A stretch of 64,000 nt of DNA from an uncultured Bifidobacteriaceae bacterium (GTDB taxonomy: Bacteria; Acidobacteriota; Vicinamibacteria; Vicinamibacterales; UBA2999): positions 80,435 to 144,434 of the forward strand of contig CAYJPQ010000001.1 of NCBI GenBank assembly GCA_964372085.1, in the 5' to 3' direction. This document shows positions 6,442 to 59,967 of the stretch, in pieces. Below the pieces are notes generated by a model. It saw only the letters and a program-made list of their open reading frames with translations, did not search any database and was not told where the DNA came from. Positions within the stretch are counted from its first letter, which is position 1; each line of letters opens with the position of its first letter. Both the position numbers and the translations under genes were made by a program.

Positions 6442-6583
6442 TAGTTCTGTCGGTGTTTCATCTGTGGCCCTGATGTCTTGTCCGTGGCCTTGATCCGTCG
6501 TTGTCGCCAGCTTCTTGGTTGGTGGGCGGTAACCCGGGAGGAGGGGCCCGGCGGATGACCGCGGGTCCGGCGGAAGCCGAACA

Positions 6584-29488: not shown

Positions 29489-31165
29489 CTACGGCCGCGG
29501 GATGCCGAAACAGCGCAGGTTGGTCTGCACGTTTTCGAGCCCGGGCAGCGGGGCCGGCGGACACGGCGCCTCTTGCTTGGGTGGTGGCGGCGGAGGGGGC
29601 GCTGGCTTGGGCGGCTCCTGCTTCGGCGGCTCCTGCTTGGGCGGCGGCGGCGCCTCGGCCGGCGGGGGCGGGGGGGGCGCCTCCTCGACGGCTTCCACCA
29701 TCACGCTGCGCTGCGCCACGACGTCGGTGATGCGGCCCGCGTCGGTCACGCCCGCATCGGGCAGCGTCACCGTGAAGCGCACCGGCCCCGGCTCTTTCGG
29801 CGCCGTGAAGACGAGCGTGGCCTCGCCCGACTTCGAGAGCGGCCACACCGCCTTGTCCAGCTCGCCGCGCGACGCCGTCGCCCGCACGTGGTCGCCGATC
29901 TTCAGCCCCGGCGGCGCCACCACTTTGACCGCGATCCCCAGCATGCCGCCCGGGATGATCGTCGTCGAGCTCTTCAGCTCGATCCGGATGTTGCGGCGCG
30001 CGGTAGCCTCCTCCGCCGCCTGCTCGCGGAGCCACTCCTCGTCGGCGCGGTCCTGATCGGCCCGTTCCTGCTCGGCGCGCTCTCTTGCCTCGCGCTCGCG
30101 CTCCAGCCGTGCCGCCTCCGCGGCCGCGGCCTTCGCCTGTGCCGCGGCGCCTTCCTGGCCCAGCTGCTTCCAGCGATCCGTCGAGGGCTTCGACGGCGCG
30201 GCGGCGGCTTGTGGCTTCGCGTCGTCGTCGGCGCCAATCCGCTTCGCCCGCTGCTGGCGCGCGCGCGCGGCCGCCGCGGCGGCATCGGCCCTGGCCCTGT
30301 CGGTGTCGGCGGCAACCGCAGCAGGCGTGGCTGCGGGCTTCGCGCCGGCGGCCGGCTCGGGCCTGGGCACAGTGTGCGTCACCCAGTTGCCGATCGCCAC
30401 CGACTCGTGGAGCTTGGCGTCCACGCCCTGGATGCGCAGCACCAGTTGCTGCAGGTACGAGTCCACCTGGCCGACGTTCACATTGGTGGTGGAGGCGATG
30501 ACCTCGCCTCCCTGCTTGAGCAACACGTCGCCCAGTCCTTCCATCAACTTGCGCCCCTGCTCGCCGTTGCCGGCCCCGCAGTTGATGAGCACGACCTTGG
30601 CGTTCGGCGCCAGGGCGTGGCCCACCGAGTCCAAGATGGCCAGGCGGTTCTCGAGCCTGGCGATGTGGCTCTCGATCCCGGTCACATCGCGCCGCGGGTC
30701 CTTCTCCCACTGCTTGAGCCGGCCCTTGTAGAGCGCCAGGTCCGAGCGGATGTCCTTGATGTCGAGGTGGCTGGCGAAGAGGCCGCCCTCGGGGAACGAG
30801 ATGTTCGGGCTCGACGGGGTCCCGTGTCCGGCGATGACGAGCAGGTTGATGCGCTTGTTCGTCTTCTGGTACTTGGCCAGCGTCTCGAACATCTCGTCGC
30901 CGCTCGACGGGTGGACGATTTGCCGGATCCGCCGCTCCTGGCCCAGAAACTCCAGGGCCTTCTGCTCGGCCTCGTCCGGGTCGATCCCGGCCGTCGACAC
31001 GCCCACGCCGATGTACTCGACGGGCGGGCGCGGCGCAGCCGGCCGCGGCTGCCCGGCGGCGGCGGTGCCGCCCGGCCCGGCCAGCAGCACGCCAAGCAGA
31101 CAGGCCGAAATGGCCGGCGATGCGAAACCCTTCGAGCGCTTCGACACGACGCTATCCTCGAACAC
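29489..31165 (-). CDS. secreted hypothetical protein: DUF4347-like N-domain, Ala/Glu/Arg coiled coil, Ig-like domain, Pro-rich tail
   Basis: 558 aa. Signal peptide (ISACLLGVLLAGPGGTAAAG), INLLVIAGHG motif, about 110 aa of AEAARLEREREARERAEQERADQDRADEE-type sequence, and C-terminal PPPPPPAEAPPPPKQEPPKQEPPKPAPPPPPPPK. It ends 42 nt upstream of the hybrid kinase gene. Confidence 0.7.
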   Translation of the reverse strand: MFEDSVVSKRSKGFASPAISACLLGVLLAGPGGTAAAGQPRPAAPRPPVEYIGVGVSTAGIDPDEAEQKALEFLGQERRIRQIVHPSSGDEMFETLAKYQKTNKRINLLVIAGHGTPSSPNISFPEGGLFASHLDIKDIRSDLALYKGRLKQWEKDPRRDVTGIESHIARLENRLAILDSVGHALAPNAKVVLINCGAGNGEQGRKLMEGLGDVLLKQGGEVIASTTNVNVGQVDSYLQQLVLRIQGVDAKLHESVAIGNWVTHTVPRPEPAAGAKPAATPAAVAADTDRARADAAAAAARARQQRAKRIGADDDAKPQAAAAPSKPSTDRWKQLGQEGAAAQAKAAAAEAARLEREREARERAEQERADQDRADEEWLREQAAEEATARRNIRIELKSSTTIIPGGMLGIAVKVVAPPGLKIGDHVRATASRGELDKAVWPLSKSGEATLVFTAPKEPGPVRFTVTLPDAGVTDAGRITDVVAQRSVMVEAVEEAPPPPPPAEAPPPPKQEPPKQEPPKPAPPPPPPPKQEAPCPPAPLPGLENVQTNLRCFGIPRP

Positions 31166-40380: not shown

Positions 40381-41370
40381 ATGACCGCTCACACCCTGAC
40401 CTCCCTTGCCGTCGCCGGCACCCTGGCGCTCGCCGCCCTGCCGGCGGCCGGCCAGACCATCACCTACGAGCCCACCGCGGGCGTGCCCACCTTCGCGGTG
40501 CGAGAGCCGGTGCTGCGCCTCACGCCGGGCACGACGGTGCAGACGCGCACCTTCTCGAAGCCGGGCGACTATTACGATCCGACCGTGGCGGGCCCCTGGC
40601 CGGGCGAGGTGGGACCGTTCCACATCGAGGGCGCGGCCCCTGGTGACACGCTGGTGGTGCGCGTGCTGCGGCTCAGGCCCAACCGCGACATCGCCATCTC
40701 CAACGTCACGCCGGGCGGCATCAGCGGGGTGGCGGCCGACAGCCGCACGCGGCTGCTGAACGAGCCGCTGCCGGCGCGCCGCTTCGTGTGGCAGCTCGAC
40801 CGGGCGCGCAACGTGGGCATCATCGACCTGCCCAACTCGGCGATCAAGAAGATGGAGATCCCGCTGCGGCCGATGCTGGGCCGCGTGGCCACGGCGCCGG
40901 CGGGCGAAGAGGAGTTCGGCGGCCTGTGGCCGGGCGACTTCGGCGGCAACATGGACGCCTCCGACGTCACCGAGGGCGCCACGGTGTACCTGCCGGTGTT
41001 CCACCCGGGCGGACAGTTCTACTTCGGCGACTTTCACGCCGCGCAGGGCGACGGCGAGATCGCCGGCTCGGGCCTCGAGTCGACGGCCGATGTCACCTTC
41101 CAGTTCGACGTCATCAAGGGCAGGCGCCTCCGCTGGCCGCGGCTCGAGAACGACGAGTACATCATGGTGCTGGGCAGCCAGCGGCCGCTGATCGACGCGC
41201 TGCGCATCGCCTACGTCGAGCTGATCGAGTGGATGGTGGCCGACTACGGCTTCGACAAGATGGAGGCGTACCAGGTGGCCTCGCAGGCGGGCGTGGTGCG
41301 CGTGGCCAACGTGGTGGACCCGCACTACACGGTGGTGGCGAAGTTTCCGAAGGCGCTGCTCAAGCGGTAG
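40381..41370 (+). CDS. acetamidase/formamidase family protein, secreted
   Basis: 329 aa with signal peptide. GGNMDASDVTEGATVYLPV and GDFHAAQGDGEIAGSGLE are typical FmdA/AmdA motifs. Confidence 0.88.
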   Translation: MTAHTLTSLAVAGTLALAALPAAGQTITYEPTAGVPTFAVREPVLRLTPGTTVQTRTFSKPGDYYDPTVAGPWPGEVGPFHIEGAAPGDTLVVRVLRLRPNRDIAISNVTPGGISGVAADSRTRLLNEPLPARRFVWQLDRARNVGIIDLPNSAIKKMEIPLRPMLGRVATAPAGEEEFGGLWPGDFGGNMDASDVTEGATVYLPVFHPGGQFYFGDFHAAQGDGEIAGSGLESTADVTFQFDVIKGRRLRWPRLENDEYIMVLGSQRPLIDALRIAYVELIEWMVADYGFDKMEAYQVASQAGVVRVANVVDPHYTVVAKFPKALLKR

Positions 41371-41381
41371 CCGCGCGCATT

Positions 41382-41414
41382 GTGATATCACATCTTTTCA
41401 TGAAGTGATATCAT
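41382..41414 (+). promoter_or_regulatory. two copies of a 10-bp palindrome (GTGATATCAC / GTGATATCAT); candidate operator of the RHH-MNT gene
   Basis: Copies at 41382-41391 and 41405-41414, 23 nt centre to centre. The second copy overlaps the ATG at 41413. This is an AT-rich island in a GC-rich context. Confidence 0.5.
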
Positions 41415-41997
41415 GCAGGCAATGGTTGCCGCCAGCCGCCGGACGCCGCCCGTGGCCCGGGTGCTGCTGCGCCTTCCGGCCGACCTCCACCGGTCGCTGA
41501 CCCGGGCCGCCGAGGCGGATGGGCTCTCGTTCAACGAGTTTTGCGTACGGCGTTTGCGCACGCCCGCCCAGCCGCAGCAGATGTCCGCGGCCCGGACCGC
41601 GGTGGTGCACCGCGCCCAGGCCGCCTTTGGCCCGCGCCTGCTCGGTGTGTTGGCGCTCGGCTCGTGGGCCCGCGGCGAGGCTGGGGCCGCCTCCGACATC
41701 GACGCGCTCATCGTGATCGATCCGAACACGCCGCTCACGCGCGACCTCTACCGAGCCTGGGATCGGGATCCCCTGGCCGTGGAGGGCCGCGTGGTCGACG
41801 CGCACTTCGCGCACCCGTCCCCGGCGGGAACCACGCCCGGTGCTGTGTGGTGCGAGGCCGCGGTGGACGGCCTGTTATGGTACGACCGGGACGGGCAGAT
41901 TCAGCAGCGCCTGGGGGAGATCCGCCGGGCGATCGCGGAGCGCCGCGTGGTGCGGAGCTTCGCGCACGGACAACCGTATTGGAAGGGAGCGGCGTGA
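41413..41997 (+). CDS. ribbon-helix-helix (HicB/Arc-like) domain fused to a minimal nucleotidyltransferase (MNT) domain
   Basis: 194 aa. N-terminal VLLRLPADLHRSLTRAAEADGLSFNEFCVRRL (RHH-type) followed by GSWARGEAGAASDIDALIV (GS-x9-D-x-D NTase motif). Confidence 0.85.
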   Translation: MQAMVAASRRTPPVARVLLRLPADLHRSLTRAAEADGLSFNEFCVRRLRTPAQPQQMSAARTAVVHRAQAAFGPRLLGVLALGSWARGEAGAASDIDALIVIDPNTPLTRDLYRAWDRDPLAVEGRVVDAHFAHPSPAGTTPGAVWCEAAVDGLLWYDRDGQIQQRLGEIRRAIAERRVVRSFAHGQPYWKGAA

Positions 41998-42521
41998 TGC
42001 ACAACCGGGAGTTGGCCGCCGACCACCTGCGCCGGGCCGGCGCCCGCCTTCGCGCGCTCGACGTGCTGCACGAGGCCGGCAGCTGGGCCGACGTCGTCCG
42101 CGAGTCGCAGGAAATTGTGGAGCTCACGTTGAAGGGACTGCTGCGCGCCTTTGGGGTGGACCCGCCGCGGATCCACGACGTGGCCGACGTGCTCATTGCC
42201 GAGCGCGAGCGCCTCCCGAAGGACTTGTGGCCACACCTCGATCGATTGGCCACCGTCTCGAGGACCCTGCGGCGCGATCGCGAGCTGGCGTTCTACGGCG
42301 CCGAAGACCTGACGCCCTCGTCGTTTTATCGCGAGGCCGACGCGGTGAGCGCGCGCGACAGCGCGCGCGACGTCGTGGGGGGGGGGGGGGGGCGCGGGGG
42401 CCCCCCCGCGGGGGGGGCGCCGCCGCCCCCCCCCCCCCCCCCCGCCGGCGGGTCACCGGGCGCGGGCTCTCGCCCGAGGTGCCCGCGCGGCGCGCCTCCG
42501 CCTCGTCACTGCACGCAGTAG
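41997..42521 (+). CDS. HEPN domain protein; genuine sequence ends about 42376 and the rest is read-through of a G/C low-complexity tract
   Basis: ATG 41997 overlaps the MNT stop (TGATG). The first 127 aa are HEPN-like (LRRDRELAFYG). From 42377 the frame reads GGGGGRGGPPAGGAPPPPPPPP..., so the natural C-terminus and stop are missing. Confidence 0.7.
   Translation: MHNRELAADHLRRAGARLRALDVLHEAGSWADVVRESQEIVELTLKGLLRAFGVDPPRIHDVADVLIAERERLPKDLWPHLDRLATVSRTLRRDRELAFYGAEDLTPSSFYREADAVSARDSARDVVGGGGGRGGPPAGGAPPPPPPPPAGGSPGAGSRPRCPRGAPPPRHCTQ
42377..42443. repeat. composite G/C homopolymer tract (junction 1)
   Basis: Counted by hand: G16-CGC-G5-C7-GC-G8-CGCCGCCG-C18. It shares GGGGGCGCGGGGG+C-run and G8-9-CGCC+C-run modules, in the same order and orientation, with 52352-52424. 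Confidence 0.9.
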
Positions 42522-43033
42522 AGCCCGCTGGCGTTGCCGACCTCTTCGCACGACCAGAACGTGGGGCAGTCGGTGAAGTCCATGCAGGTCTTCGAGCAGT
42601 AGCCGAACTGGGTGTCCGGCGCGAACAGGCAGGCGTCGTACATGCAATCGGCGTTGTCCTGACACTGGCTCCCGAGATCGTCGCCTCCGCCGCCGGTCGT
42701 CGTGGACGTGTTGCCTCCCGACGACGTCGAGCCGCCGGTGGTGCTGCCGCCGCACGAGCCCGGCGTCGGCGAGCAGGCCGAAGGATCGAAGTCGTTGAAG
42801 CACTGGTCGACGGCGCCCTGCGACGGGCAGGTGAAGTGCTCGTCGTTGAGGCAGCACTCGAAGCTCGACGAGCCGGAGCCGCTGGTGGAGCCGTTGCCCG
42901 AGCCGCTGCTCGAGCCGTTGCCCGAGCCGTTCGTGTTGTCGCCGCCCGCGCCGCCGCCGCCGCTCTCGCCGCCGCAGCCGATCACCACCGCGCAGATCCC
43001 GATCCCGACCAAGCCAACGAAACGCGTGAACAT
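42506..43033 (-). CDS. Cys-rich lipoprotein (uncharacterised)
   Basis: Internal ATG 43033 (MFTRFVGLVGIGICAVVIGCGG, lipobox VIGC), 175 aa. Gly/Ser/Asn linker followed by a Cys-rich module CQDNADCMYDAC...YCSKTCMDFTDCP...C. Confidence 0.7.
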   Translation of the reverse strand: MFTRFVGLVGIGICAVVIGCGGESGGGGAGGDNTNGSGNGSSSGSGNGSTSGSGSSSFECCLNDEHFTCPSQGAVDQCFNDFDPSACSPTPGSCGGSTTGGSTSSGGNTSTTTGGGGDDLGSQCQDNADCMYDACLFAPDTQFGYCSKTCMDFTDCPTFWSCEEVGNASGLYCVQ

Positions 43034-43208
43034 CGCTCTCTCCTCGTGGAAATGGAGGCACCCGCGCACCGCGCGCGCGTCCCTCGCTGGACCTCGCCGC
43101 GCGGCGCCCGTCGGGGGCTCTCCGCTCGGCTCATCGGTACGACGCGCCGGGGCGGGCGCTGTAACACGAATTTTTTGGTGAGCCGGAAACGTCCGCGCGT
43201 TCGCGTGC

Positions 43209-44039
43209 TTACCCGCGCGGCGTGTCCGCCTCGGGGGCGAGGAGCCGATCGAGGCTGACGTCGAGCTGGCTGAGGCAGAGGCGCGTCACGCTGGCGAGCT
43301 CGGCCTCGTCGAGCTGGAGGCGATCGCGGAGGAGGGCGCGGGTGCCGTCGAGCAGCTTCTGCCGCGTCTGCCCCAGCCAGCGCGCCACGCTCACCCGGTG
43401 GACGCCGTAGATCCCGGCCACCTCGTCGGCGGTGAGGCCGTCGGTGTAGACCAGGCGGAGCACGTTGCGATCCTTCGGGGAGAGACCGGTGAGCGCGTCG
43501 CGGAACGCCTGGCTGAACGGCTCGGCGTAGCGCGCGCGCACCTGGGCGAGCTCGGGATCGTCGTCCGCCGCGAGCTCGCCGAGCGCCGAGTCGCCGGCGT
43601 GGTCGTCGCGCGCCTGCTTGCGGTACTCGCTCAGCGCCTCGTGCACCGTGAGCGCCCTCAGCCAGGCGCGGATCGGCCCCTTGCCCGTGTAGGTCACGAT
43701 CCTCGGCTCGGCGCCCTCGGCGGCGACGAAGAGCTTGTGGCGGATGCGCTGGAGGATCTCGTCGTTCGCCGCGCCGCGGAGCCGCAGGCGCGCGAGCGCC
43801 CTCGGCGCCTCGAGCGCGAGCTCGGCCTCGAACGCCGCGAGCGCGGCCGGATCGCCCTCGGCGCAGCAGGCGGCGAGGTAGAGATCGGGCAGGTGGAGCG
43901 CGCCGGTCGCGGCGCCCGCCTCGAGGTGCGACGCCAGCCGTCGCGCGAAGCGCCCGTCGCCCCCGGCGAGGCCGGGCCGGGAGGCCCGGGCCGAGGCGAG
44001 CGCCTGGGCGATCATGCCCTGGGGACCGACATCGACCAC
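43209..44039 (-). CDS. ECF-type sigma-70 family factor with extended N-terminus (Myxococcales-type subfamily)
   Basis: 276 aa (GTG 44039; alternative ATG 44015). Region 2-like PIRAWLRALTVHEAL and region 4 LVYTDGLTADEVAGIYGVHRVSVARWL. The N-terminal LHLPDLYLAACCAEGDPAALAAFE is typical of the myxobacterial ECF group I recall as TIGR03001-like. Confidence 0.82.
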   Translation of the reverse strand: MVDVGPQGMIAQALASARASRPGLAGGDGRFARRLASHLEAGAATGALHLPDLYLAACCAEGDPAALAAFEAELALEAPRALARLRLRGAANDEILQRIRHKLFVAAEGAEPRIVTYTGKGPIRAWLRALTVHEALSEYRKQARDDHAGDSALGELAADDDPELAQVRARYAEPFSQAFRDALTGLSPKDRNVLRLVYTDGLTADEVAGIYGVHRVSVARWLGQTRQKLLDGTRALLRDRLQLDEAELASVTRLCLSQLDVSLDRLLAPEADTPRG

Positions 44040-44076
44040 GCGCTCACGCTAGCAACAAACGACTATCCTGGCCCGG

Positions 44077-45144
<1,068 letters not shown>

Positions 45145-45157
45145 CGGCGCGCCGCGG

Positions 45158-46168
45158 TCAGGGCGCGCGGACCACCCAGCCGAGGCCGCCGCCGTCGAGC
45201 GCGGGCCGCTCCGGATCCGGGCGCGTCGCGGCGTACGTGGTGACGGCGGCGCCCGCCACGACGACGGCCGCCGCGCCCCAGAACCACCAGCGCGTGAGCA
45301 GGCTGGGCTGGTGCGGTTTGAGCGGCGCCGAGAGATCGACGCGCTGCCCCGCCTTCAGCGTCGTCGAGACCTCGTAGGGATCGAAGCCCGGCTTGCGGAC
45401 GAGGACCCGGTGGGCGCCGGCGCCGCGCTCCACGGACACCGGCGCGATGCCGACGTCGAGCCCATCGACGGCGACGACGGCGTCGCGCTCGTTCGAGGAG
45501 ACGCGCAGCATGGCAGGGAGCCGCTCGACCGCGAGGCGCAGCGCTCGCCGCTCGCCGGGGCGGACCGTCTCGCGGTGGAGCGCGTCGGCGAAGCCCTCGC
45601 GGGCGATGAGGAACACGTGCGGCCCGGGATCGAGCACGAGCCGGAACACCGGCGCCGGCGGAGGCTTGCCCGGCCCCGCCGGGAGCGTTCCCGCGAGCAG
45701 CGTCGGCCGATCGCCGCCCTCGGTCGGCTCGAGCGGCTGGCCGTCGACGGTGATCGCCGCGTCGCCGGGCTCGAGCGTCACCTCGAGCGTGGCCACGATC
45801 CGGTCGATCTCGGCGATGAACCGCTCGGTGTCGGTCACCGTCGCCTCGGGGAGATCGGCGTCGGGCTTGCGCTCGGCGAGCGCGCGGCCGAACGTGCGGC
45901 GCGCGCGGACGTACTGGCCGAGCGCGCGCTCGCACACCCCCATGTTGTACGTGGTCCAGGCGTGCGGCCGGCGGCGAGCGGAGCGCTCGAAGGCGGCGAG
46001 CGCCGCGCCCCACTGCGCGTCCTTCGCGAGCTCGGCGCCGCGGGCGAAGTCGGCGCGGGCCTCGGCCACGCCGTCGGCGTCCTGCGCCGTCGCCGGCGGC
46101 GCGGCGGAGGCGAGCGCGACGGCGAGCGCCATCGCCGCGAAGGACCGCTCGACACGTGCGGGAGCCAC
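45158..46168 (-). CDS. PEGA domain protein with N-terminal TPR-like region and C-terminal TM anchor
   Basis: 336 aa from GTG 46168 (alternative ATG 46132), with signal peptide. PEGA-like modules (ITVDGQP..., VAVDGLDVGIAPV...VLVRKPGFDPYE) and the TM segment WWFWGAAAVVVAGAAV. Confidence 0.75.
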   Translation of the reverse strand: MAPARVERSFAAMALAVALASAAPPATAQDADGVAEARADFARGAELAKDAQWGAALAAFERSARRRPHAWTTYNMGVCERALGQYVRARRTFGRALAERKPDADLPEATVTDTERFIAEIDRIVATLEVTLEPGDAAITVDGQPLEPTEGGDRPTLLAGTLPAGPGKPPPAPVFRLVLDPGPHVFLIAREGFADALHRETVRPGERRALRLAVERLPAMLRVSSNERDAVVAVDGLDVGIAPVSVERGAGAHRVLVRKPGFDPYEVSTTLKAGQRVDLSAPLKPHQPSLLTRWWFWGAAAVVVAGAAVTTYAATRPDPERPALDGGGLGWVVRAP

Positions 46169-46182
46169 GCTCCGTGTGTCCC

Positions 46183-47544
46183 TCAGAACGGGACCTTTGT
46201 CAGCAGCTTTGTCGGGGCCGCGTCGGAGCTCGCCGGAGGCGCCGCGGTCGCATTCGCCGACGCCGCGCTCGCCGTGGGCGCCGGCGCCGGCGGCGTCTTC
46301 GCGGGCGGCTGGGGCGGGATCGCGCGATCGGCGCGCGCGGTCGACGCCGGCGGCACCGTGGGCGCACCCGACGGCGTCGAGGGACTGGCGGAGGTCGACG
46401 AGGCTGCGTTCGCGGCGGGCTCCCGCGCGGAGACGACCGCGCTCGGGGCGGGCTCCGCCGGCTCGGGGGGCGCCGTCGCGACCACGGCCGACGTGGCCGC
46501 GTCCGGCGACGGAGACGCCGGCTTCCCGAACGCGAGCACCCCGAGCGCGACGGCCGCGACCACGCCCGCGGCGGCGACGGCGACACGCGAGCGCGGCCGG
46601 GGGCTCCCCGCCGCGCCGCCGGTGGTCTCGCCGCTCGGGTTCGGCGTCGGCGCGGCCGAGAGGAATCGCGCCGGCGCGGCCCGGCCCACCCGCGCGCCGG
46701 CCGCGGCGCTCGGCGCTCCGGCGAGCGCCTCGAGGACCTCGCGCGCAGTGCCCGGCCGATCCGCGGGATCGATCGAGAGCAGCTCGCCGACGAGCCGCGC
46801 CACCGGCTCGGGCGTCGTGGGCACGCGCGCGGCGAGCGGCTCCAGCTTGCCGTTGGTCAAGAGGCGCAGCACCTGCCCGAGGTTCTCGGCCTGCGTCGGC
46901 GGCGCGCCGGCCAGGCACTCGTAGAGGATGACCCCGACGGCCCAGAGGTCGGCGCGCGCGTCGATGGGATCGCCGAACGCCTGCTCGGGCGCCATGTAGT
47001 AGGGCGTGCCGATCATCGCGCCCGTCGCGGTGAGCGCGCCGGACGCGCCGGGGACGCCCTCGGGGGCGACCACCTTGGCGACGCCGAAGTCGAGGATCTT
47101 CACCTCGCCGCCGTCGAGGAGGAAGAGGTTGTCCGGCTTGAGATCGCGGTGGACGATCCCGGCGGCATGCGCGGCCTCGAGCCCGCCGAGCACGGCGCGC
47201 ACGATGCGCAGCGCCTCGTCCAGGGGAAGCACCCGCTCGCGCGCGAGGCGCGCGCGCAGCGACTCGCCCTCGAGCAGGTCCATCACCAGGACCGGCGATC
47301 CGTCGTCGGCCTCGAGCACGTCGTGGACCGCGAGGATGCTCGGGTGGAGGGCGGCGCAGGCGGCCCGCGCCTCGCGCAGCATCCGCCGGCGGGCGCTCGC
47401 GTCGTCGCCGGTCGCGTGGAGGAGCTTGAGGGCGAAGGCCTTGCCCGTGACCGTGTGCCGCGCCGCCCAGACGCTGCCCATCCCGCCCTTGCCGAGAAGG
47501 CGCTCGAGGCGGTAGCGCTGGGCGATGACGTCTCCCGGCCCCAT
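46183..47544 (-). CDS. Ser/Thr protein kinase with Ala/Pro-rich C-terminal region
   Basis: 453 aa. GKGGMGSVW, ALK, HRDLKPDN, DFG, APE, and a low-complexity tail. Confidence 0.88.
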   Translation of the reverse strand: MGPGDVIAQRYRLERLLGKGGMGSVWAARHTVTGKAFALKLLHATGDDASARRRMLREARAACAALHPSILAVHDVLEADDGSPVLVMDLLEGESLRARLARERVLPLDEALRIVRAVLGGLEAAHAAGIVHRDLKPDNLFLLDGGEVKILDFGVAKVVAPEGVPGASGALTATGAMIGTPYYMAPEQAFGDPIDARADLWAVGVILYECLAGAPPTQAENLGQVLRLLTNGKLEPLAARVPTTPEPVARLVGELLSIDPADRPGTAREVLEALAGAPSAAAGARVGRAAPARFLSAAPTPNPSGETTGGAAGSPRPRSRVAVAAAGVVAAVALGVLAFGKPASPSPDAATSAVVATAPPEPAEPAPSAVVSAREPAANAASSTSASPSTPSGAPTVPPASTARADRAIPPQPPAKTPPAPAPTASAASANATAAPPASSDAAPTKLLTKVPF

Positions 47545-47588
47545 GGGCCCGGTGTAGCACCGGGCGGCGCGGGAAGGGATGACCTCAC

Positions 47589-47612
47589 CCCCTCTCCCTC
47601 ACGGGAGAGGGG
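47589..47612 (-). terminator. perfect 10-bp GC-rich hairpin downstream of uvrD
   Basis: CCCCTCTCCC-TCAC-GGGAGAGGGG, 25 nt past the reverse-strand uvrD stop. No U-tract. Confidence 0.4.
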
Positions 47613-47636
47613 AAGGAGCGGAGAGAGCGGGGTTCG

Positions 47637-50009
47637 TCAGAGGCGCAGGAACCGGAGCTTGATCCGCTTCACGCCCCAGCCGGGGAACTGGACCGAGGCG
47701 GTCGGGTCGTCGCCGCCGTCGACGCTCACGAGCTTGCCGGTGCCGAACTTCTCGTGGCTGACGCGGGCGCCGGGGCGCAGCGGGCCGTGGCCGCTTTCAT
47801 CCACGCCGGGGTCGCGCTCGACGTAGCGCTCGCCCGGAGCGTGGGACGGCTCCTCGCGGGCACGCGACGAGGCGGGCGCGTCGTAGCGCCGCTCTTCGAT
47901 GCGGGATCGGGGGCCGCCGTCGTCGGGGCCCGCGTGACCGCCGGACCGCGCCTGCGGGTGCGTCCAGGCGTCGCGGAGCCGGTCGAAGCTCGGGAGCCGA
48001 TCGACGCGGCGCTCGCCCACGCCCATCTGGCGCGCGGTGTCGGTCGCCATCGGCCGCACCGACGTCTTCGGGAGATCGCGGAGGAAGCGGCTGGGCACGC
48101 CGTAGCGGGTGGTGCCGAAGATCATCCGCCGCTGGGCGTGGGTGACGAAGAGGCGCTCGCGGGCGCGCGTGACGGCGACGTAGGCGAGGCGACGCTCCTC
48201 CTCGAGCTCCTCGGCTTCCTTCGGGTCGAGCCCGCGGAAGGGGAAGATCTCCTCCTCCATCCCGGTGAGGAACACGGCGTGGAACTCGAGCCCCTTGGCC
48301 GCGTGCACCGTCATCATCGCGACCTTGGGCGCGTCGGCGAGCTGATCGACGTCGCTCGAGAGCGTGACGCGCTCGAGATAGCCGTCGAGCGTCCCCACCT
48401 CGCCCGCCGCCGCGGCCTCCTCCTCGTACTCGGCGATGGAGCCGAGGAGCTCGTCGAGGTTCTGCAGTCGCGCCTCGCTCTCGGCGCTGTCGTCCTCGGC
48501 GAGCCAGCTCGCGTAGCCGGTCCGCTCCAGCACCTCCTCGGCGAGCACGTGCGGCGAGGCCGTCCGCGCCTCGCCGATGAGCCCCTGGAGCAGATCGCGG
48601 AAGGCGAGCAGGCTCTTCTTGGCCGCGGTCCCGACCGCCCCGCTCTGGCATGCCGGCTCGATGGCGTCGTAGAGCGACGTCTTGCGCTCGTCGGCGACCG
48701 CCGTCACGCGCGCCATCGTGGTGTCGCCGATCTTTCGGGAGGGCACGTTGACGATGCGGGCGAGGTCGACGTCGCTCCTCGGGTTGGAGATGACGCGGAG
48801 GTACGAGAGCAGGTCCTTGATCTCGGCGCGCTCGAAGAAGCGGGTGCCCCCGATGATCTGGTAAGGGATCCGCGCCGCGCGCATCACCTCCTCGAGCACG
48901 CGCGACTGGGCGTGGACGCGGTAGAAGACCGCGATGTCGCGCGGCGAGATCCCGCGGTCGATGAGCTCCTTCAGCCGCTCGACCACCCACGCCGCCTCGT
49001 CGCGCTCGCTCTCGGCGGCGACGACGTGGATGGGCTCGCCGTCGTTGCGCGCCGTCCACAGCTCCTTCGGCTCGCGATCGCGGGCGGGGCGGATGACGCC
49101 GAGGCCGCCCTTCACGATGTGCCCGGTCGAGCGGTAGTTCTGCTCGAGCTTGATCACCGTCGCTTCCGGGAAGTCGCGCCGGAAGTTGCGGATGTTGCGC
49201 ACGTCGGCGCCGCGCCAGCGGTAGATGCTCTGGTCGTCGTCGCCGACCACGCAGAGGTTCTTCCGCTCGCCGGCGAAGGCGCGGACGAGGCGGTACTGGA
49301 CGAGGTTCACGTCCTGGAACTCGTCGACGAGCACGTAGCGGAAGCGCCGGCGGAGCTCCTCCCCCGCGGGGATCGTCGGGTCCTCGGCGATGCGGAGGAC
49401 GGCGAGCAAGAGGTCCTCGAAGTCGACCGCGTTCGCGTCGCGGAGGTGGCGCTGGTACGCCTCGAAGCAGCGCCCGATGGCGTCGTCGAGGTAGCCCTCG
49501 GCGACGAACTGCTCCGGGCCCCGCGCCTCCTGCTTCTCCTTGTGGATGCGCGCCAGGATCTGCCGGGGCGGGTAGCGCTTGTCGTCGAGGTCGAGCTCCT
49601 TGAGGACGCGGTTCATGACGGCGCGCTGGTCGGCGTCGTCGTAGATGACGAAGCTGCGCTCGAGCCCGGCCGCGTCGTGGTGGCGGCGCAGCAGCCGGGC
49701 GCACACCGCGTGGAAGGTGCCGACCCAGAGGTCCTTGGCGACCTCGACGCCGAGCAGGCCCTCGAGGCGGCGCTTCATCTCGCCCGCCGCCTTGTTGGTG
49801 AACGTCACCGCGAGCACCCGGTAGGGCGGGACGCGGTGGCCCGCGACCAGGTTGGCGATGCGGTAGGTGATGACGCGGGTCTTCCCGCTCCCGGCGCCCG
49901 CGAACACCAAGAGGGGTCCGTCGACGTGGGCGACGGCGCTCGCCTGCGGCTCGTTGAGCTCCGGCGGCCCCTCGGGCGGCTCGGGCGAGGAGAGCTCGGC
50001 GTCGATCAT
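47637..50009 (-). CDS. uvrD: ATP-dependent DNA helicase UvrD/PcrA
   Basis: Start set at ATG 50009 (MIDAELSS...), 790 aa. Walker A GAGSGKTRV, motif II VDEFQD, and a C-terminal Tudor-like GARVSHEKFGTGKLV. The track start at 50183 would overlap the divergent gene. Confidence 0.93.
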   Translation of the reverse strand: MIDAELSSPEPPEGPPELNEPQASAVAHVDGPLLVFAGAGSGKTRVITYRIANLVAGHRVPPYRVLAVTFTNKAAGEMKRRLEGLLGVEVAKDLWVGTFHAVCARLLRRHHDAAGLERSFVIYDDADQRAVMNRVLKELDLDDKRYPPRQILARIHKEKQEARGPEQFVAEGYLDDAIGRCFEAYQRHLRDANAVDFEDLLLAVLRIAEDPTIPAGEELRRRFRYVLVDEFQDVNLVQYRLVRAFAGERKNLCVVGDDDQSIYRWRGADVRNIRNFRRDFPEATVIKLEQNYRSTGHIVKGGLGVIRPARDREPKELWTARNDGEPIHVVAAESERDEAAWVVERLKELIDRGISPRDIAVFYRVHAQSRVLEEVMRAARIPYQIIGGTRFFERAEIKDLLSYLRVISNPRSDVDLARIVNVPSRKIGDTTMARVTAVADERKTSLYDAIEPACQSGAVGTAAKKSLLAFRDLLQGLIGEARTASPHVLAEEVLERTGYASWLAEDDSAESEARLQNLDELLGSIAEYEEEAAAAGEVGTLDGYLERVTLSSDVDQLADAPKVAMMTVHAAKGLEFHAVFLTGMEEEIFPFRGLDPKEAEELEEERRLAYVAVTRARERLFVTHAQRRMIFGTTRYGVPSRFLRDLPKTSVRPMATDTARQMGVGERRVDRLPSFDRLRDAWTHPQARSGGHAGPDDGGPRSRIEERRYDAPASSRAREEPSHAPGERYVERDPGVDESGHGPLRPGARVSHEKFGTGKLVSVDGGDDPTASVQFPGWGVKRIKLRFLRL

Positions 50010-50166
50010 CCCCTGCTCGGTTAGCACGGCGGGGCGCGCTTGGGGAGCGGCGGAGGGCGCACCGCCGGACGGCGCGACGCGCGCATGATCGCCGTGGGAT
50101 CCGGACAAACTGTGGAGAGTTGTGCTCTTGACGCGGGCGCGCAGGCCCATCACGGGAGAGGGCGAC

Positions 50167-52284
50167 ATGCGCATCGCGCTCACCTACAACCTGAAGCTCA
50201 GCGGCTCCGCCGAAGAGGCGGAGTTCGACAGCCCGGAGACCATCGACGCGCTCGCCGCAGCGCTCTCCCGGGCCGGACACGAGGTCGAGCGCATCGAGGT
50301 CTCGGGGCCTCCCTCGCGCGTGGTCGCGCGCCTCGAGGCGCTCGCGCCCGACCTCATCTTCAACACCGCCGAGGGCCACAAGGGCAAGACGCGCGAGGCG
50401 TTCTACCCCGCGCTCTTCGACGAGCTCGGGATCCCGTACACCGGCTCGGACGCGTACGCGCTCTGCGTGACGCTCGACAAGCTCCTCACCAAGCGCATCC
50501 TCTCGAGCTACGGCGTCCCCACGCCCCGCGCGCGGCTGGTCACGCGCGCCACCATCGAGAGCGGCGCGCTCGACGACATGATCTTCCCGGCCATCGTCAA
50601 GCCCAACTTCGAGGGCTCGTCCAAGGGCATCAGCGAGTCGAGCGTGGTCGAGGACGCCTACGAGCTCTCCTCGCGCGTCGACCGCCAGCTCGATCGCTAC
50701 GAGGCGGGCCTCCTCGTCGAGCGCTACGTGCCCGGGACCGACGTGTCCTGCTCCTTCGTCGACGGCATCGAGCCCGACGGCGTCCTCGAGCCGATCGAGT
50801 ACGTGATCGATCCCCAGTTCGCCGGCGCGTACAACGTCTACGACTACAACCTCAAGAACATCAAGCCCGAGCACGTCACCCTGCGCCCCGCCGAGTTCCC
50901 GCGCGCGGTGATCGAGCGCATCCAGGCGCTCACCCGCCGCATCGTCCGCGCCCTCGACCTCAAGGACCACGCCCGCTGCGAGTTCCGGGTCACCCCCGGC
51001 TCGGCGAGCCGGGGCCCCGAGGTGCAGTTCCTCGAGGTCGACGCCCTCCCCAGCCTCGAGAACGGCCTGGGCACGTTCATCTCGGCGAAGCGGCGCGGCG
51101 TCGACTACGACGGCGTGGTCCGCGCCATCGTCAAGAGCGCCTGCAAGCGCCGCGGCATCCCGCTCGGCGAGCCGGGCGCGACCAAGAAGCGCCGCGCCGC
51201 CGCCGCGCTCCGGGTGGGCCTCACCTTCAACATGAAGCGCATCGACACGTCGGGCGGCGACGACGCCGAGGCCGAGTTCGACTCCCCGAAGACGATCCAG
51301 GCGATCAGCCGCGCCATCGAGAGCTACGGCCACACCGTGGTGATGCTCGAGGCGAACGCCGACCTGCCCCACGCGCTCACCGCCGCCGCGCCCGACGTCG
51401 TCTTCAACATCGCCGAGGGCCACCACGGCCGCGGCCGCGAGGCGCACGTGCCGGCGCTCTGCGAGCTCCTCGGCATCCCCTACAGCGGCTCGGACGCGAC
51501 GACGCTCTCGCTCTGCCTCGACAAGGGCCTCACCAAGCAGATCCTCCGCGCCGCCGGGATCCAGACGCCCGAGTGGCAGATGCTCACCACCGGCCGCGAG
51601 AAGCTCCGCGCCTTCCGCTACCCTGTCATCGTCAAGCCGAACGCCGAGGGCACCTCGAAGGGCATCACCTCGGCCTCGGTGGTCGAGGACGAGGCCGCCG
51701 CGCGCGCCGCGGCCAAGGCGCTCGTCGACAAGTACGGCCAGCCCGCCCTCGTCGAGGAGTACGTCGACGGGCGCGAGCTCACCGTGGGCCTCCTCGGCGA
51801 GCGCCGGCCCAAGGTGCTCCCGCCGATGGAGGTCGTCTTCGTCGATCCCTCGGCCCACCCCGTCTACGGCTTCGAGGAGAAGCAGGCCGACACCACCAAG
51901 GTGCGCTTCGAGTGCCCGGCGCAGCTCTCGCCGGCCGAGCTCAAGCGAGTGGAGAAGGTCGTCCGCGACACCTTCGCCGCGCTCGACTGCCGCGACGTGG
52001 CGCGCATCGATCTCCGCCTCGCCAAGGACGGCACGGTCTACGTCATCGAGGTCAACCCGCTCCCCGGCCTCACCCCGGACTTCAGCGATCTCTGCGTCAT
52101 CGCCAAGGTCGTGGGGATGGACCACCGCACGCTCATCGGCGAGATCCTCGCGCCGTCGATCAAGCGCCATCGCGAGGCCAAGGCCGCCGCTGCTCCCACG
52201 AACGGCGACGCGCCGCCGCCCGGCGCGCGGAGCTCGGATCGCCCCCCGACCGTGCAGGCCGTGAAGCTCGCGAACGGCCACTGA
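50167..52284 (+). CDS. tandem double D-Ala-D-Ala-ligase-like ATP-grasp protein
   Basis: Internal ATG 50167 (MRIALTYNLK...), 705 aa. Two colinear Ddl-like halves, each beginning (I/V)(A/G)LT(Y/F)N(L/M)K...AEFDSP(E/K)TI...FN(T/I)AEGH.G..REA..PAL.E.LGIPY(T/S)GSD. Confidence 0.85.
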   Translation: MRIALTYNLKLSGSAEEAEFDSPETIDALAAALSRAGHEVERIEVSGPPSRVVARLEALAPDLIFNTAEGHKGKTREAFYPALFDELGIPYTGSDAYALCVTLDKLLTKRILSSYGVPTPRARLVTRATIESGALDDMIFPAIVKPNFEGSSKGISESSVVEDAYELSSRVDRQLDRYEAGLLVERYVPGTDVSCSFVDGIEPDGVLEPIEYVIDPQFAGAYNVYDYNLKNIKPEHVTLRPAEFPRAVIERIQALTRRIVRALDLKDHARCEFRVTPGSASRGPEVQFLEVDALPSLENGLGTFISAKRRGVDYDGVVRAIVKSACKRRGIPLGEPGATKKRRAAAALRVGLTFNMKRIDTSGGDDAEAEFDSPKTIQAISRAIESYGHTVVMLEANADLPHALTAAAPDVVFNIAEGHHGRGREAHVPALCELLGIPYSGSDATTLSLCLDKGLTKQILRAAGIQTPEWQMLTTGREKLRAFRYPVIVKPNAEGTSKGITSASVVEDEAAARAAAKALVDKYGQPALVEEYVDGRELTVGLLGERRPKVLPPMEVVFVDPSAHPVYGFEEKQADTTKVRFECPAQLSPAELKRVEKVVRDTFAALDCRDVARIDLRLAKDGTVYVIEVNPLPGLTPDFSDLCVIAKVVGMDHRTLIGEILAPSIKRHREAKAAAAPTNGDAPPPGARSSDRPPTVQAVKLANGH

Positions 52285-52346
52285 AGAGGAGTCGGACAAT
52301 CGTCCGACCCACGCCGCTCGAGGCCCGAGGTCCGACGCCTCTTCAG
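52281..52346 (+). terminator. 17-bp (one mismatch) stem-loop starting on the stop codon of the ATP-grasp gene
   Basis: CTGAAGAGGAGTCGGAC (52281-52297) pairs with GTCCGACGCCTCTTCAG (52330-52346). An alternative inner hairpin is GTCGGAC-AATC-GTCCGAC (52291-52308). The G/C tract begins 5 nt downstream. Confidence 0.45.
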
Positions 52347-52351
52347 TCCCC

Positions 52352-52424
52352 GGGGGCGCGGGGGGGCCCCCCCCCCCCCCGCCCCCCCCCCGCGGGCGGG
52401 GGGGGGGGCGCCCCCCCCCCCCCC
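52352..52424. repeat. composite G/C homopolymer tract (junction 2)
   Basis: Counted by hand: G5-CGC-G7-C14-G-C10-GC-G3-C-G9-CGC-C16. It shares modules, order and orientation with 42377-42443. Confidence 0.9.
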
Positions 52425-52555
52425 CCTCGCGACCGCCGCATGGATCAGACCAACACGCCTCGCGCAGCGCGGACGGATGCGGTCCGTCGCGCGCGAAGCG
52501 CACACCCCGCCCGGCGCGCGGCTTGCGACGGTTCGATCCGTCGGGGGTCTCGCGC

Positions 52556-52951
52556 ATGGGGGTGTTCGCCAGCAGAAACAGGAAGCGCGCCGCGGCGGGC
52601 GCGGCGCTCCTCGTCGCCGCCGCGGCCGCCGGCTCGTGCGCGCTCGAGCGCCGGCCGTACCTGCCCGATCCGCGGCCCGGCGTGCCGGCCTACTGGGAGT
52701 CCAGCCTCCCGCCGAGCGCGACCGAGGCGGTGGACGAAGACGGTGGCGCGTCCGACGCCGCGATGGACGGCGCCGCGGGCGAGAAGCGCGACGCGGCGCC
52801 CTCTCCGCCGCCGCCCGAGAAGTACCTCTGGGAGGACCCGCCCGCGCCGACGGTGCCGGTGATCGAGCGGCCGCCGCCGCCCGGCCCGCCCGATTCGCAG
52901 ATCCCGCTGCGCGACGACGTGCAGCACGACGTCGAGCCTCTCAAACATTAG
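52556..52951 (+). CDS. small Pro-rich lipoprotein (hypothetical)
   Basis: ATG 52556 (MGVFASRNRKRAAAGAALLVAAAAAGSC, lipobox-like), 131 aa. Very high third-position GC in this frame. No recognisable domain. Confidence 0.5.
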   Translation: MGVFASRNRKRAAAGAALLVAAAAAGSCALERRPYLPDPRPGVPAYWESSLPPSATEAVDEDGGASDAAMDGAAGEKRDAAPSPPPPEKYLWEDPPAPTVPVIERPPPPGPPDSQIPLRDDVQHDVEPLKH

Positions 52952-52970
52952 CGCCGCTCGCCTGCAACCG

Positions 52971-53043
52971 CGGGCAATTGACCCGACCGAAGCGAAGCGG
53001 AGGGCGGGTGTCCGGCCGGCGCGAGCCGGCCGGCAATTGCCCG
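52971..53043. terminator. nested palindromes between convergent genes (candidate bidirectional terminator)
   Basis: Outer pair CGGGCAATTG (52971-52980) and CAATTGCCCG (53034-53043). Inner hairpin CCGGCCGG-CGCGAG-CCGGCCGG (53012-53033). A further hairpin GGGGGC-GGA-GCCCCC lies at 53052-53066. Confidence 0.4.
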
Positions 53044-53077
53044 GGGGGTTTGGGGGCGGAGCCCCCATGTTGGGAGA

Positions 53078-54643
53078 TCAGTCGAGCACGGGCAGCGGGT
53101 TCGCCGAGTCGGGGAACATCTCGTGCGCCGCCATCTGGCGGGCGTCGAGGCGCGCCGCGAGCTTGGCCCGGCCCTTCGAGGTGGTCAGCTGCGCGGTCGC
53201 CTTCTCGAAGCGCAGCTTCGCCTCGGCGAAGTACGCGGCCCGGGGCTTCGCCAGCGAGGCGTCGGGGATGGCGCCGTCGAGGAGCGCGGCCAGGTAGGCC
53301 GAGCGCGGCGCCGACATCGCCGGGAGCGCGCCGGCCGCGTGCTTGGCAAGGAGCAGCTTGCGCAGGTGCGCGTCGACGTCGGCCGGCGCCGCCGGCAGGC
53401 CCTCCACCGCCTCGGCGTGGAGCGCGCAGCGCGCGCTCGAGAAGATGTCGTTCTCGTCGTCGACGAGGCGGATCGCCGTGATCGTCCGCGCCGTGAGGTA
53501 GCCCGTCTTCTGCAAGAAGGCCTCGATGCGCTTGTCCATCTCGGAGCGCACCGGCAGGAGCTCGAACGGCTCGGAGGGGTAGGCCGTCGGCTTCACGAAC
53601 CCTGCGCCCGACACCGCCGCCGGATCGACGAAGAGCTCGAGGGGCACGGTGTCCGACGAGCTCATGAAGCCGAGCTCGGTCTGGCAGAAGACCGACCGGA
53701 GCATCTGCGGCATCCCGCCCGGCTGCGTGCCGTCGAGCATCATCTGTCCGAAGCCCGAGCCGGCGGCGTCGCTCGCGCCGTACACCCAGGTCCGGATCGC
53801 GGCGCGCATGGTCTGCTCGAGATCGTTGGCGAGCGAGGAGCGCGAGTGCTCGCCGTGGAGCGCCGCCGCCTCGGTCACGATCGACGCCGTCTCGCCCGTC
53901 AGGCTCGACTCCTCGGGCAGCATCTTGTGGGTGCTGACCCAGTTGGTCCACGGCTCGGTCATCTCGTTCATGAGCGGGCCGCCGGCGACGTGGCAGTTGA
54001 AGCACCGGCGGTCCTCGCTGACGCGCTTGGTCGCGGCCTTGCCCGGGAGCTTCTCGAGCTCGAGCACCCGATCGGTGGCGTCGCGCATGATGCGCGTCAC
54101 GGTGCCGGGCTTGCCGCTGCCGTTCGACTCGAACACGTAGAAGTTGTAGAGGCCGGTCTTGGTGTCGAGGGCCATCACCTCGACCGGCTCGAGCACCATC
54201 GGATCCCCCTCGGCCGCGTGGGGCGCGTCGGGGCTCGAGACGAGCGCGACCATCAGGCTGAACGACTGGCGCACCGACTCGGGGTCCTGCCGGTCGGTGT
54301 TGCAGCCGGTGATCACGGCGCGCGGGAGCACCTGGCTCGTCGACTCCTGCTCGCCGGTGGCGCGGCTCGAGGGCTCCTCGACGACGAAGATCTCCTTCGA
54401 GTCCTGGCGGGCGCAGGCGCGCCCGATGCCGAAGAGCTTCTCCACCTCGGGGTAGGTGCCCGGGACCTTGTCCGGGCTCTTCTTGAGCACGTCGGCGACG
54501 CGGTCGTTGCCCCAGAGCGTCACCTTCTCGCGGACGTCCTGCTCGTCGCCCACGCCGGCGTCGTCGCCGCCGCAGCCGACCGCGGCCGCGGCGGACGCCG
54601 CCACGGCGAGCACGAGCCCCGCGAGACGCCGGGCCGTGCTCAC
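53078..54643 (-). CDS. lipoprotein with a single CxxCH motif (uncharacterised)
   Basis: GTG 54643 (VSTARRLAGLVLAVAASAAAAVGCGG, lipobox AVGC), 521 aa. One c-type-haem-like CFNCH. The start overlaps the stop of the upstream gene (GTGA). Confidence 0.75.
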   Translation of the reverse strand: MSTARRLAGLVLAVAASAAAAVGCGGDDAGVGDEQDVREKVTLWGNDRVADVLKKSPDKVPGTYPEVEKLFGIGRACARQDSKEIFVVEEPSSRATGEQESTSQVLPRAVITGCNTDRQDPESVRQSFSLMVALVSSPDAPHAAEGDPMVLEPVEVMALDTKTGLYNFYVFESNGSGKPGTVTRIMRDATDRVLELEKLPGKAATKRVSEDRRCFNCHVAGGPLMNEMTEPWTNWVSTHKMLPEESSLTGETASIVTEAAALHGEHSRSSLANDLEQTMRAAIRTWVYGASDAAGSGFGQMMLDGTQPGGMPQMLRSVFCQTELGFMSSSDTVPLELFVDPAAVSGAGFVKPTAYPSEPFELLPVRSEMDKRIEAFLQKTGYLTARTITAIRLVDDENDIFSSARCALHAEAVEGLPAAPADVDAHLRKLLLAKHAAGALPAMSAPRSAYLAALLDGAIPDASLAKPRAAYFAEAKLRFEKATAQLTTSKGRAKLAARLDARQMAAHEMFPDSANPLPVLD

Positions 54644-59478: not shown

Positions 59479-59967
59479 TCAGCCGCCGCGCGCGTCGGCG
59501 CTGGCGCGATCGGCGGCGGCCTGGCTCGCCGCGTAGCGGGCGAACCGCTTCGTCCCGCCCATGAAGACGCGGCCCTGCTCCTTGAGCGCGCGGAGCGCCG
59601 AGGCGACCTCACCGCGCGCGAGCCCCGAGGCGCGCTCGATCTCGGAGACGCTCATCCCCGACGATCCGGCCACGACGCGCGCGACCTCGTCGAGCGACGC
59701 GGCGCGCTGCTCCGAGGTGGGCCGGCCGCGGCCGGCGCGGCGGGCAGGCGCACCGGCCGCCGGCTTCTCCCGCTTCTTGGCGGGCGCGGCGGGCGCCGCT
59801 TGACCGCGAGACCCCGCCGCTCGCGGGCGCCCGAGCCCCGTGAGCGCGCGGGCCGCGCCTCGCTCGATCCCGAGGCGCCCGAGGATGAGATCGGTCACCT
59901 CCTCGGTCAGCTCGCGCGCGTGCCTGGACACGAGGGCCTCGAGCTCCGCCTCGAACGGGGTCGCCAT
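59479..59967 (-). CDS. hypothetical protein with basic linker and C-terminal winged-helix-like DNA-binding region
   Basis: ATG 59967 (MATPFEAELEAL...), 162 aa. Lys/Arg/Ala-rich centre, and a C-terminal MSVSEIERASGLARGEVASALRALKEQGRV that is HTH-like. Confidence 0.55.
   Translation of the reverse strand: MATPFEAELEALVSRHARELTEEVTDLILGRLGIERGAARALTGLGRPRAAGSRGQAAPAAPAKKREKPAAGAPARRAGRGRPTSEQRAASLDEVARVVAGSSGMSVSEIERASGLARGEVASALRALKEQGRVFMGGTKRFARYAASQAAADRASADARGG

Follow-up and report, generated by a model that had tools for sequence, protein, structure and literature searches.

Two G/C-only tracts in a 64-kb contig window are most probably sequencing and assembly artefacts, one at a false join and one at a true adjacency

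We analysed two tracts composed only of G and C (S-only runs) in a 64,000-nt stretch of DNA, hereafter the window, which covers positions 80,435 to 144,434 of contig CAYJPQ010000001.1 (assembly GCA_964372085.1). The tracts lie at 42377-42452 (76 nt, tract 1) and 52348-52426 (79 nt, tract 2) and divide the window into three blocks. An earlier note, made from the letters alone, had read them as imperfect direct repeats around a 9.9-kb block and as possible genuine intergenic elements, either collapsed into false joins by the assembler or flanking a real inserted segment. Our analysis indicates, with a probability of about 93%, that both tracts are sequencing and assembly artefacts, tract 1 being a false join and tract 2 filler. 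The remaining doubt mainly concerns the exact technical origin of the junk, and not its status as an artefact. There is no insertion, repeat element, mobile block or new element at these sites, and the tracts are not a real biological feature.

As features of the window, the two tracts exist where they were first seen. A scan for S-only runs found no third such tract in the 64 kb, and no G or C homopolymer of at least 10 nt lies outside the two. The 13-mer GGGGGCGCGGGGG occurs exactly twice, at 42388 and 52352 and both times on the + strand, against a chance expectation of 0.02 for the whole window; the motif is thus common to both tracts in equal orientation, as reported. The C16-C18 run said to close each tract is also present, but the G-run ahead of CGCC, given as G8-9, measures G8 in the first tract and G11 in the second. 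The flanks had been described correctly: the start of tract 1 falls within the 3' end of a HEPN gene, a lipoprotein stop codon lies 62 nt beyond that tract, a stem-loop at 52282-52345 stands by the stop of an ATP-grasp gene, and the next start codon is 129 nt downstream of tract 2.

We compared the window with sibling assemblies, namely the metaSPAdes assemblies ENA ERZ13692936-ERZ13693180, whose NODE_ contig names carry coverage values. Loci were fetched by exact-protein look-up of the flanking genes, which yielded more than 25 sibling contigs (identified below by L numbers). Both flanks of tract 1 are contradicted by these siblings, and the contig is chimeric at this point.

Block 1 (1-42378) belongs to one population genome, has a GC content of ~0.69 and ends with FmdA, a nucleotidyltransferase (MNT-like) gene and the HEPN gene; the gene order upstream of HEPN is the same in L001-L005. 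In the window the HEPN gene (41997-42378, + strand) is truncated at its 3' end. Its last native bases are ...CGACGTCGTGG and no stop precedes the tract, so the earlier placement of tract 1 at the last codons of HEPN was right, but the gene is more than touched, as 13 native codons are missing. The missing continuation is CGACGGTGCGTCCGCACGTCGCCACCGGCCAGCCGGGATGA (13 codons and the stop), and the native tail is found past the junk in L001, L002 and L004. The truncated product spans positions 2-106 of the 117 in the Pfam HEPN profile; the reconstructed native protein spans 2-114 and scores 55.2 bits, against 52.0 for the read-through product of the window. The gene call in the window is therefore corrupted by a false Gly/Pro-rich tail, and the chimeric read-through open reading frame (ORF) had no exact-protein record.

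All five displayed contigs (L001-L005) start G/C filler at the same base, directly after ...CGACGTCGTGG. The five fillers are all different, and L001-L003 carry an N10 scaffold gap. The 11-nt flank CGACGTCGTGG is duplicated around the filler in L004, and native sequence restarts at the same 11-mer after the N10 gap in L002; from the restart both contigs run on as CGACGTCGTGGCGACGGTGCGTCCGCACGTCGCCACCGGCCAGCCGGGATGA, in frame to the HEPN stop, with single-base errors in L004. After HEPN comes a cbb3-type oxidase cluster in 22 of 23 sibling contigs, a count made up of L001-L004 as shown plus 18 contigs collapsed under L001, whose neighbouring genes are mostly the same. The exception, L005 (ENA ERZ13692960 NODE_473), is a different chimera and does not have the window's join. 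At 6540-6870 of the L005 locus, junk that includes TAAAAAACAAAA links HEPN to HhH-GPD, Zincin_1, RsmA, RNase J and FtsK genes.

The lipoprotein side tells the same story. The true junk of tract 1, where blocks 1 and 2 are falsely joined, covers 42379-42443 (65 nt, G/C only); 42444-42452 (GCCGGCGGG), previously counted as part of the tract, is genomic. Native block 2 sequence, beginning GCCGGCGGGTCACCGGGCGCGGGCTCTCGCCCGAGG, occupies 42444-42505 and forms a GC-rich hairpin region downstream of a gene for a 175-aa Cys-rich lipoprotein (42506-43033, - strand), the first gene of block 2. The true neighbour of this gene is that of LigD Prim-Pol, not HEPN: exact-protein look-up placed the lipoprotein beside the LigD Prim-Pol gene in 21 of 22 contigs and beside HEPN in none. 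The remaining contig (L009/L067) stops in a junk tail with a G43 run. In L007, L011/L064 and L063 the 23-nt native flank GCCGGCGGGTCACCGGGCGCGGG stands on both sides of the junk. Because this duplication brackets the junk, the native sequence is best read as continuous, with junk inserted between two copies of the same bases. A false join by the assembler, one of the two options that had been put forward, is thus borne out at tract 1, and neither of the deviating contigs (L005 and L009/L067) lends the join support.

The two sequences fused at tract 1 probably belong to different genomes or populations. Coverage in ERZ13692950 is 4.8x for block 1 and 16.2x for block 2 (ratio 0.30), and in ERZ13692972 it is 16.8x and 7.5x (ratio 2.25); the flip of the ratio between samples points to different populations. 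GC content is ~0.69 in block 1 and ~0.72-0.76 in blocks 2 and 3, with a peak of 0.80 at 46-47 kb. Tetranucleotide correlations are 0.93-0.96 among chunks of block 1, 0.88-0.95 (also put at 0.90-0.94) between these and blocks 2 and 3, and 0.96-0.97 among chunks of blocks 2 and 3. This composition step, between 1-42378 and 42444-64000, fits two source genomes. Protein similarity places block 2 in the Polyangiaceae, with 73-79% identity between its ATP-grasp protein and those of Minicystis (M. rosea), Byssovorax, Polyangium and Sorangium.

Tract 2 lies at a genuine junction. Blocks 2 and 3 (42444-64000) form one contiguous Polyangiaceae segment with the gene order lipoprotein, ECF sigma, kinase, PEGA, kinase, uvrD, double ATP-grasp, a gene for a 131-aa protein, and onwards, and the order across the tract 2 site is the same in L006-L009 and L055-L062. 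In each of the 13 sibling loci examined the flanks are invariant and the 131-aa gene comes next after the ATP-grasp gene. The 131-aa gene (52556-52951, + strand), a predicted lipoprotein gene, was confirmed as the true downstream neighbour by exact-protein look-up, in which the places shown, each with the ATP-grasp gene preceding, stand for all 23 contigs read. As with the read-through HEPN ORF, no exact-protein record matched two starts of the ATP-grasp gene; the start codons probably differ from those called, or the window's own contig is not indexed.

The left edge of tract 2 is native. A terminator-like stem-loop, TGAAGAGG...CCTCTTCA (52282-52345, from DNA folding), is followed by the G-run motif CCCCGGGGGCGCGGGGG, the two together occupying 52282-52364 on the + strand, and it is here that read failure begins. 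All siblings share this left flank unchanged as far as ...CCCCGGGGGCG, and L060, which is clean at the site, has the motif in full. The junk proper covers 52365-52426 (62 nt, G/C only) and stands in place of ~12 native bases, CAGAGCCACCGC. In L060 (ERZ13693049, 151x coverage) the site reads CCTCTTCAGTCCCCGGGGGCGCGGGGGCAGAGCCACCGCTCGCGACC. From anchor to anchor the spacer measures 27, 94, 119, 139, 163, 175 or 188 nt depending on the assembly, and 77 nt in the window; the interiors differ, and L008/L062 have an N10 gap together with A/T junk. Blocks 2 and 3 are therefore truly adjacent, tract 2 is corrupted filler, and the artefact model predicts that the site resolves to CCCCGGGGGCGCGGGGGCAGAGCCACCGCTCGCGACC without junk. 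A false join at this second tract, as the earlier note had allowed, does not hold, and the contiguity of blocks 2 and 3 without the tract, which it had named as evidence against its own reading, is what L060 displays. We attach next to no probability to a three-way chimera in which both junctions are false: the two tracts are indeed the same kind of junk, but the adjacency across tract 2 recurs in every sibling locus including L060, blocks 2 and 3 share a tetranucleotide profile, and in L039, a related metagenome-assembled genome (MAG), the distance from the ATP-grasp gene to a block 3 homologue downstream is 2.3 kb.

We then considered whether the tracts are related to each other. Local alignment of tract 1 with tract 2 scored 31 in direct and 29 in inverted orientation. 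Shuffles that preserve run lengths gave a mean of 32 (standard deviation 5.4), with 295 of 500 at or above the observed score, and tract 1 aligned to unrelated sibling-assembly junk with a mean score of 29. The tracts are consequently no more similar than chance would make them, and the description as imperfect direct repeats was not sustained even though the tracts themselves exist. The shared 13-mer GGGGGCGCGGGGG is native at tract 2, with a clean copy in L060, and also occurs in sibling junk in both orientations. We rejected the tracts as att-like direct repeats, given similarity at shuffle level and the lack of a recombinase in the block. A Pfam search of the seven genes of the block found no integrase, recombinase or transposase, in agreement with what had been noted; the domains identified were ECF sigma, kinase, PEGA/TPR, UvrD and ATP-grasp, and the lipoprotein and a second kinase stretch had no Pfam match. 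An empty site was not seen either, as the outer flanks of the block are never adjacent in siblings: HEPN leads to the cbb3-oxidase cluster, and the block leads leftwards to LigD.

These results bear on the possibility that tract 1 records a true rearrangement or insertion in the sampled strain, with a mobile or recombined 9.9-kb block. The join is present in the window itself and similar-looking tracts stand at both ends of the block; still, we consider this very unlikely. Beyond the lack of any recombination enzyme and the chance-level similarity of the tracts, the right boundary is an ordinary adjacency in every sibling locus, and the left breakpoints are positions where other assemblies hold junk without rearrangement. 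Another chimera (L005) and a dead-end contig (L009) occur at the same sites, HEPN loses its last 13 codons and stop, and the coverage ratios of the two sides are discordant in shared samples. Rather than an inserted segment, the 9.9-kb block forms the left-hand end of an unbroken Polyangiaceae stretch that has LigD Prim-Pol as its left neighbour.

The filler itself varies from assembly to assembly. At all three sites (HEPN, lipoprotein and tract 2) its sequence differs in every sibling contig, often with an N10 gap or a duplicated native flank, so that its reading as a genuine intergenic element is not supported. A fourth site lies within coding sequence: in L059, 71 nt inside the ATP-grasp ORF are replaced by G/C-only junk of equal length. 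The filler also retains a memory of the sequence that it replaces. At the HEPN site, that of L004 is 80% identical to the native continuation projected by A to C and T to G, and the best shifted register reaches at most 58%. In-register matches were 0.74 (L008) and 0.78 (L059) at the tract 2 site, and 0.78 (L006) and 0.82 (L011) at the lipoprotein site. A first confusion matrix was built on tails picked for their similarity to the projected native sequence; as this was circular, it was replaced by one from unselected tails. Over the first 30 nt of 31 distinct unselected tails, a native T was called G 60 times and C 18 times, and a native A was called C 34 times and G 29 times. Isolated A to C errors also occur just beyond the junk in L001, L003, L005 and L061.

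One might also read the tracts as genuine, hypervariable elements built of G/C homopolymers, structure-forming or akin to contingency loci, that short reads render poorly; the differences between samples would then be biological, and the 27-nt version of L060 would be one allele. The recurrence of the sites over more than 25 independent contigs and the native G5CGCG5 motif at the left edge of tract 2 speak for this idea, which we find scarcely credible because the clean 27-nt version comes from the assembly with the highest coverage, native flanks are duplicated with nothing missing between them at two sites, and the fillers contain N10 gaps and stray A/T junk. Equal-length replacement within a coding sequence, the in-register A to C and T to G memory, and the lack of such tracts in related complete genomes (see below) likewise favour an artefact.

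In two-colour Illumina chemistry, C is read in red only, T in green only, A in both channels, and G is dark (PMC6129281). If the green signal were lost, A would be read as C and T as G, and total loss of signal would give G. We infer from this correspondence that the miscall spectrum is the signature of signal loss in such chemistry. A mechanism for both tracts can be proposed on this basis. At GC-rich hairpins or G-runs, short reads would lose signal and be called as G and C only, A becoming C and T becoming G before the calls drift to poly-G. Forward reads that fail would append a G-rich tail to the left flank, and reverse reads that fail would put a C-rich tail ahead of the right flank, which would make both tracts look alike and seemingly share an orientation. 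metaSPAdes would extend contigs into these tails and then scaffold them with N10 or merge them through shared low-complexity k-mers, a presumed path through the assembly graph. At tract 2 a true adjacency would have been bridged and ~12 native bases overwritten; at tract 1 the HEPN 3' tail of one population genome would have been fused to the lipoprotein-side tail of a different Polyangiaceae genome.

Why reads should fail at these positions is partly accounted for by local structure. DNA folding places all four failure sites in or beside GC-rich inverted repeats or G-runs: the HEPN site has GCGCGCGCGACAGCGCGCGC and then GTGGCGACG...CGTCGCCAC, the lipoprotein site has GGCGGCCGCGCTGCAAGAGCGCGGCCGC, at tract 2 the 64-nt stem-loop precedes C4G5CGCG5, and the failure-prone site in the ATP-grasp coding sequence (50998-51068, + strand) contains the hairpin CCCCGGCTCGGCGAGCCGGGG. 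The window, L055 and L060 all read cleanly through this last site; L007/L061 hold junk with an N10 gap there. The HEPN and lipoprotein sites are among the strongest 0.05% of the window's 40-nt folds, and no background window folds as strongly as the lipoprotein site (-22.2 kcal/mol). GC-rich hairpins cluster at terminators. Since the failure sites track GC-rich hairpins and G-runs, their mostly intergenic location is explained. The argument that random poly-G artefacts would have fallen inside genes does not apply, because the sites are not random, one of the four is intragenic, and the HEPN site itself is in coding sequence. Nakamura et al. (2011; PMC3141275) reported that inverted repeats and GGC set off stretches of Illumina miscalls by which assemblies are broken. 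In our data the hairpin is a correlate and a partial predictor of failure, not a sufficient cause.

Two further places in the window have related features. At ~53040-53080, beyond the 131-aa gene, the four sibling contigs L059-L062 break off at the GC-rich inverted repeat GGCCGGCGCGAGCCGGCCGGCAATTGCCCGG or within ~50 nt of it, and L061 shows an A to C miscall at its end there; this failure-prone site is intact in the window. A G9 run at 29371-29379 and an S-only stretch with G5CG8 at 29656-29681 lie near a gene boundary at ~29.4-29.7 kb and may be either native sequence or minor miscalls.

Several observations weigh against our interpretation, or against parts of it. No clean, uninterrupted read-through was recovered at the HEPN or lipoprotein sites, where native continuity is deduced from flank duplications and the resumption of the ORF. 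The assignment of blocks 1 and 2 to different genomes draws on two shared samples and on composition. For the A/T miscall bias, Fisher's test gives p = 2e-4, an approximate value as the tails are not fully independent across assemblies. The step to two-colour chemistry is deduced from the error spectrum, and the window's own tracts have no significant in-register signal (0.54-0.56, against shifted maxima of 0.58-0.62). The tract 2 and intragenic sites rank only within 3-5% of 40-nt windows by fold strength, and equally strong hairpins elsewhere (for example at 59725 and 15191) are clean.

That the window's own tracts have no significant in-register signal is one reason to consider that the artefact arose by another route, such as library-prep tailing, read error correction or assembler gap closing with low-complexity k-mers, all with the same outcome. 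Involvement of a scaffolder is evident from the N10 gaps, and GGGGGCGCGGGGG, like its reverse complement, turns up in the junk of more than one site, which hints at a common pool of low-complexity k-mers. We regard such an origin as unlikely, for the in-register A to C and T to G bias fits miscalled bases better than foreign sequence, and the equal-length replacement in L059 and the isolated A to C errors immediately beyond the junk support the same view.

The earlier note had recommended a search of related genomes for G/C tracts at equivalent positions. Complete genomes of Sorangium and Minicystis supplied about twenty loci of 22 kb, in which we found only one G or C homopolymer of at least 10 nt. 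None of these complete Polyangiaceae loci has a comparable junk tract, meaning long homopolymers within an S-only run; the S-only stretches of 41-45 nt that do occur in the complete genomes lack long homopolymers. What is conserved with relatives is only the divergent uvrD/ATP-grasp pair, at 64-79% amino acid identity, and the junctions are too diverged to compare. An S-only run after the ATP-grasp match in MAG L015 was examined as a possible conserved tract and set aside as ordinary Ala/Pro-rich coding sequence. The end of that contig, NODE_6070 of the unrelated public Polyangiaceae MAG binchicken_co16_22, runs at 16039-16090 of the locus into C-rich low-complexity junk, which suggests that the same class of artefact is present in other deposited MAGs. 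An Rfam search of 41000-54000 at the gathering threshold gave no match. Two scans of Joint Genome Institute (JGI) metagenomes, one with the HEPN junction in its native form and one with the sequence flanking tract 2 on the left, found nothing; the species appears to be absent from that collection.

Two gene pairs beside the tracts deserve description in their own right. The divergent uvrD and the gene for a 706-aa protein (47637-52284) are kept together in many Polyangiaceae loci, including those of Sorangium, Polyangium, Chondromyces and several MAGs (L013-L051); at the Minicystis locus, uvrD was not detected beside the ATP-grasp gene. The 706-aa protein consists of two tandem ATP-grasp modules resembling D-Ala-D-Ala ligase. 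At 41413-42378 lies an MNT/HEPN-type pair, in which a 194-aa protein has a HicB-like N-terminus and an NTP_transf_2 domain. Its stop overlaps the HEPN start, and the layout resembles a toxin-antitoxin module.

For users of these data the consequences are practical. The contig is chimeric at 42379-42443 and should be split there, and ~12 intergenic bases are wrong at 52365-52426. The same failure sites recur over dozens of public assemblies in one ENA series and yield different chimeras, as in ERZ13692960 NODE_473. Bins, gene catalogues and synteny analyses built from such data can inherit the false joins. S-only tracts of at least 40 nt with long G or C homopolymers offer a cheap flag for splitting contigs.

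Comparison with known systems places the tracts among technical and not biological phenomena. They resemble the attL/attR repeats of genomic islands superficially, as two similar-looking tracts around ~10 kb, and differ in that there is no recombinase, the repeat is at chance level and unreproducible, and the block has an ordinary adjacency at one boundary and a misjoin at the other. With phase-variable homopolymers (contingency loci) they share G/C homopolymer lengths that vary between samples. Here, however, whole interiors differ instead of unit copy number, N gaps are present, a tract-free version exists, and the tracts lie outside promoters and 5' coding regions. We rejected this class, since in place of stepwise change in a single homopolymer we found spacers of 27-188 nt, N gaps and flank duplications. 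With chimeras between genomes in de Bruijn-graph metagenome assemblies, which are joined through shared low-complexity or repeat k-mers, tract 1 has in common that its two segments disagree in neighbours, coverage and composition, with the difference that the shared node is sequencing junk and not a real repeat such as an insertion sequence (IS) or rRNA. A literature search for misassemblies driven by poly-G found nothing specific. Fixed positions beside inverted repeats at which miscall runs start, with loss of coverage and assembly gaps, were described by Nakamura 2011 (PMC3141275), on the four-colour Genome Analyser and as mismatches and gaps instead of long G/C filler in contigs. The poly-G or low-signal tails of two-colour Illumina instruments (NextSeq, NovaSeq), as described for fastp (PMC6129281), differ from ours in being pure poly-G and in arising at late cycles, whereas the tails here are mixed G/C and begin at specific genomic sites. 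They match in the G-run 3' of the last good base, the C-run on the opposite strand, and an error spectrum of A to C and T to G followed by C to G.

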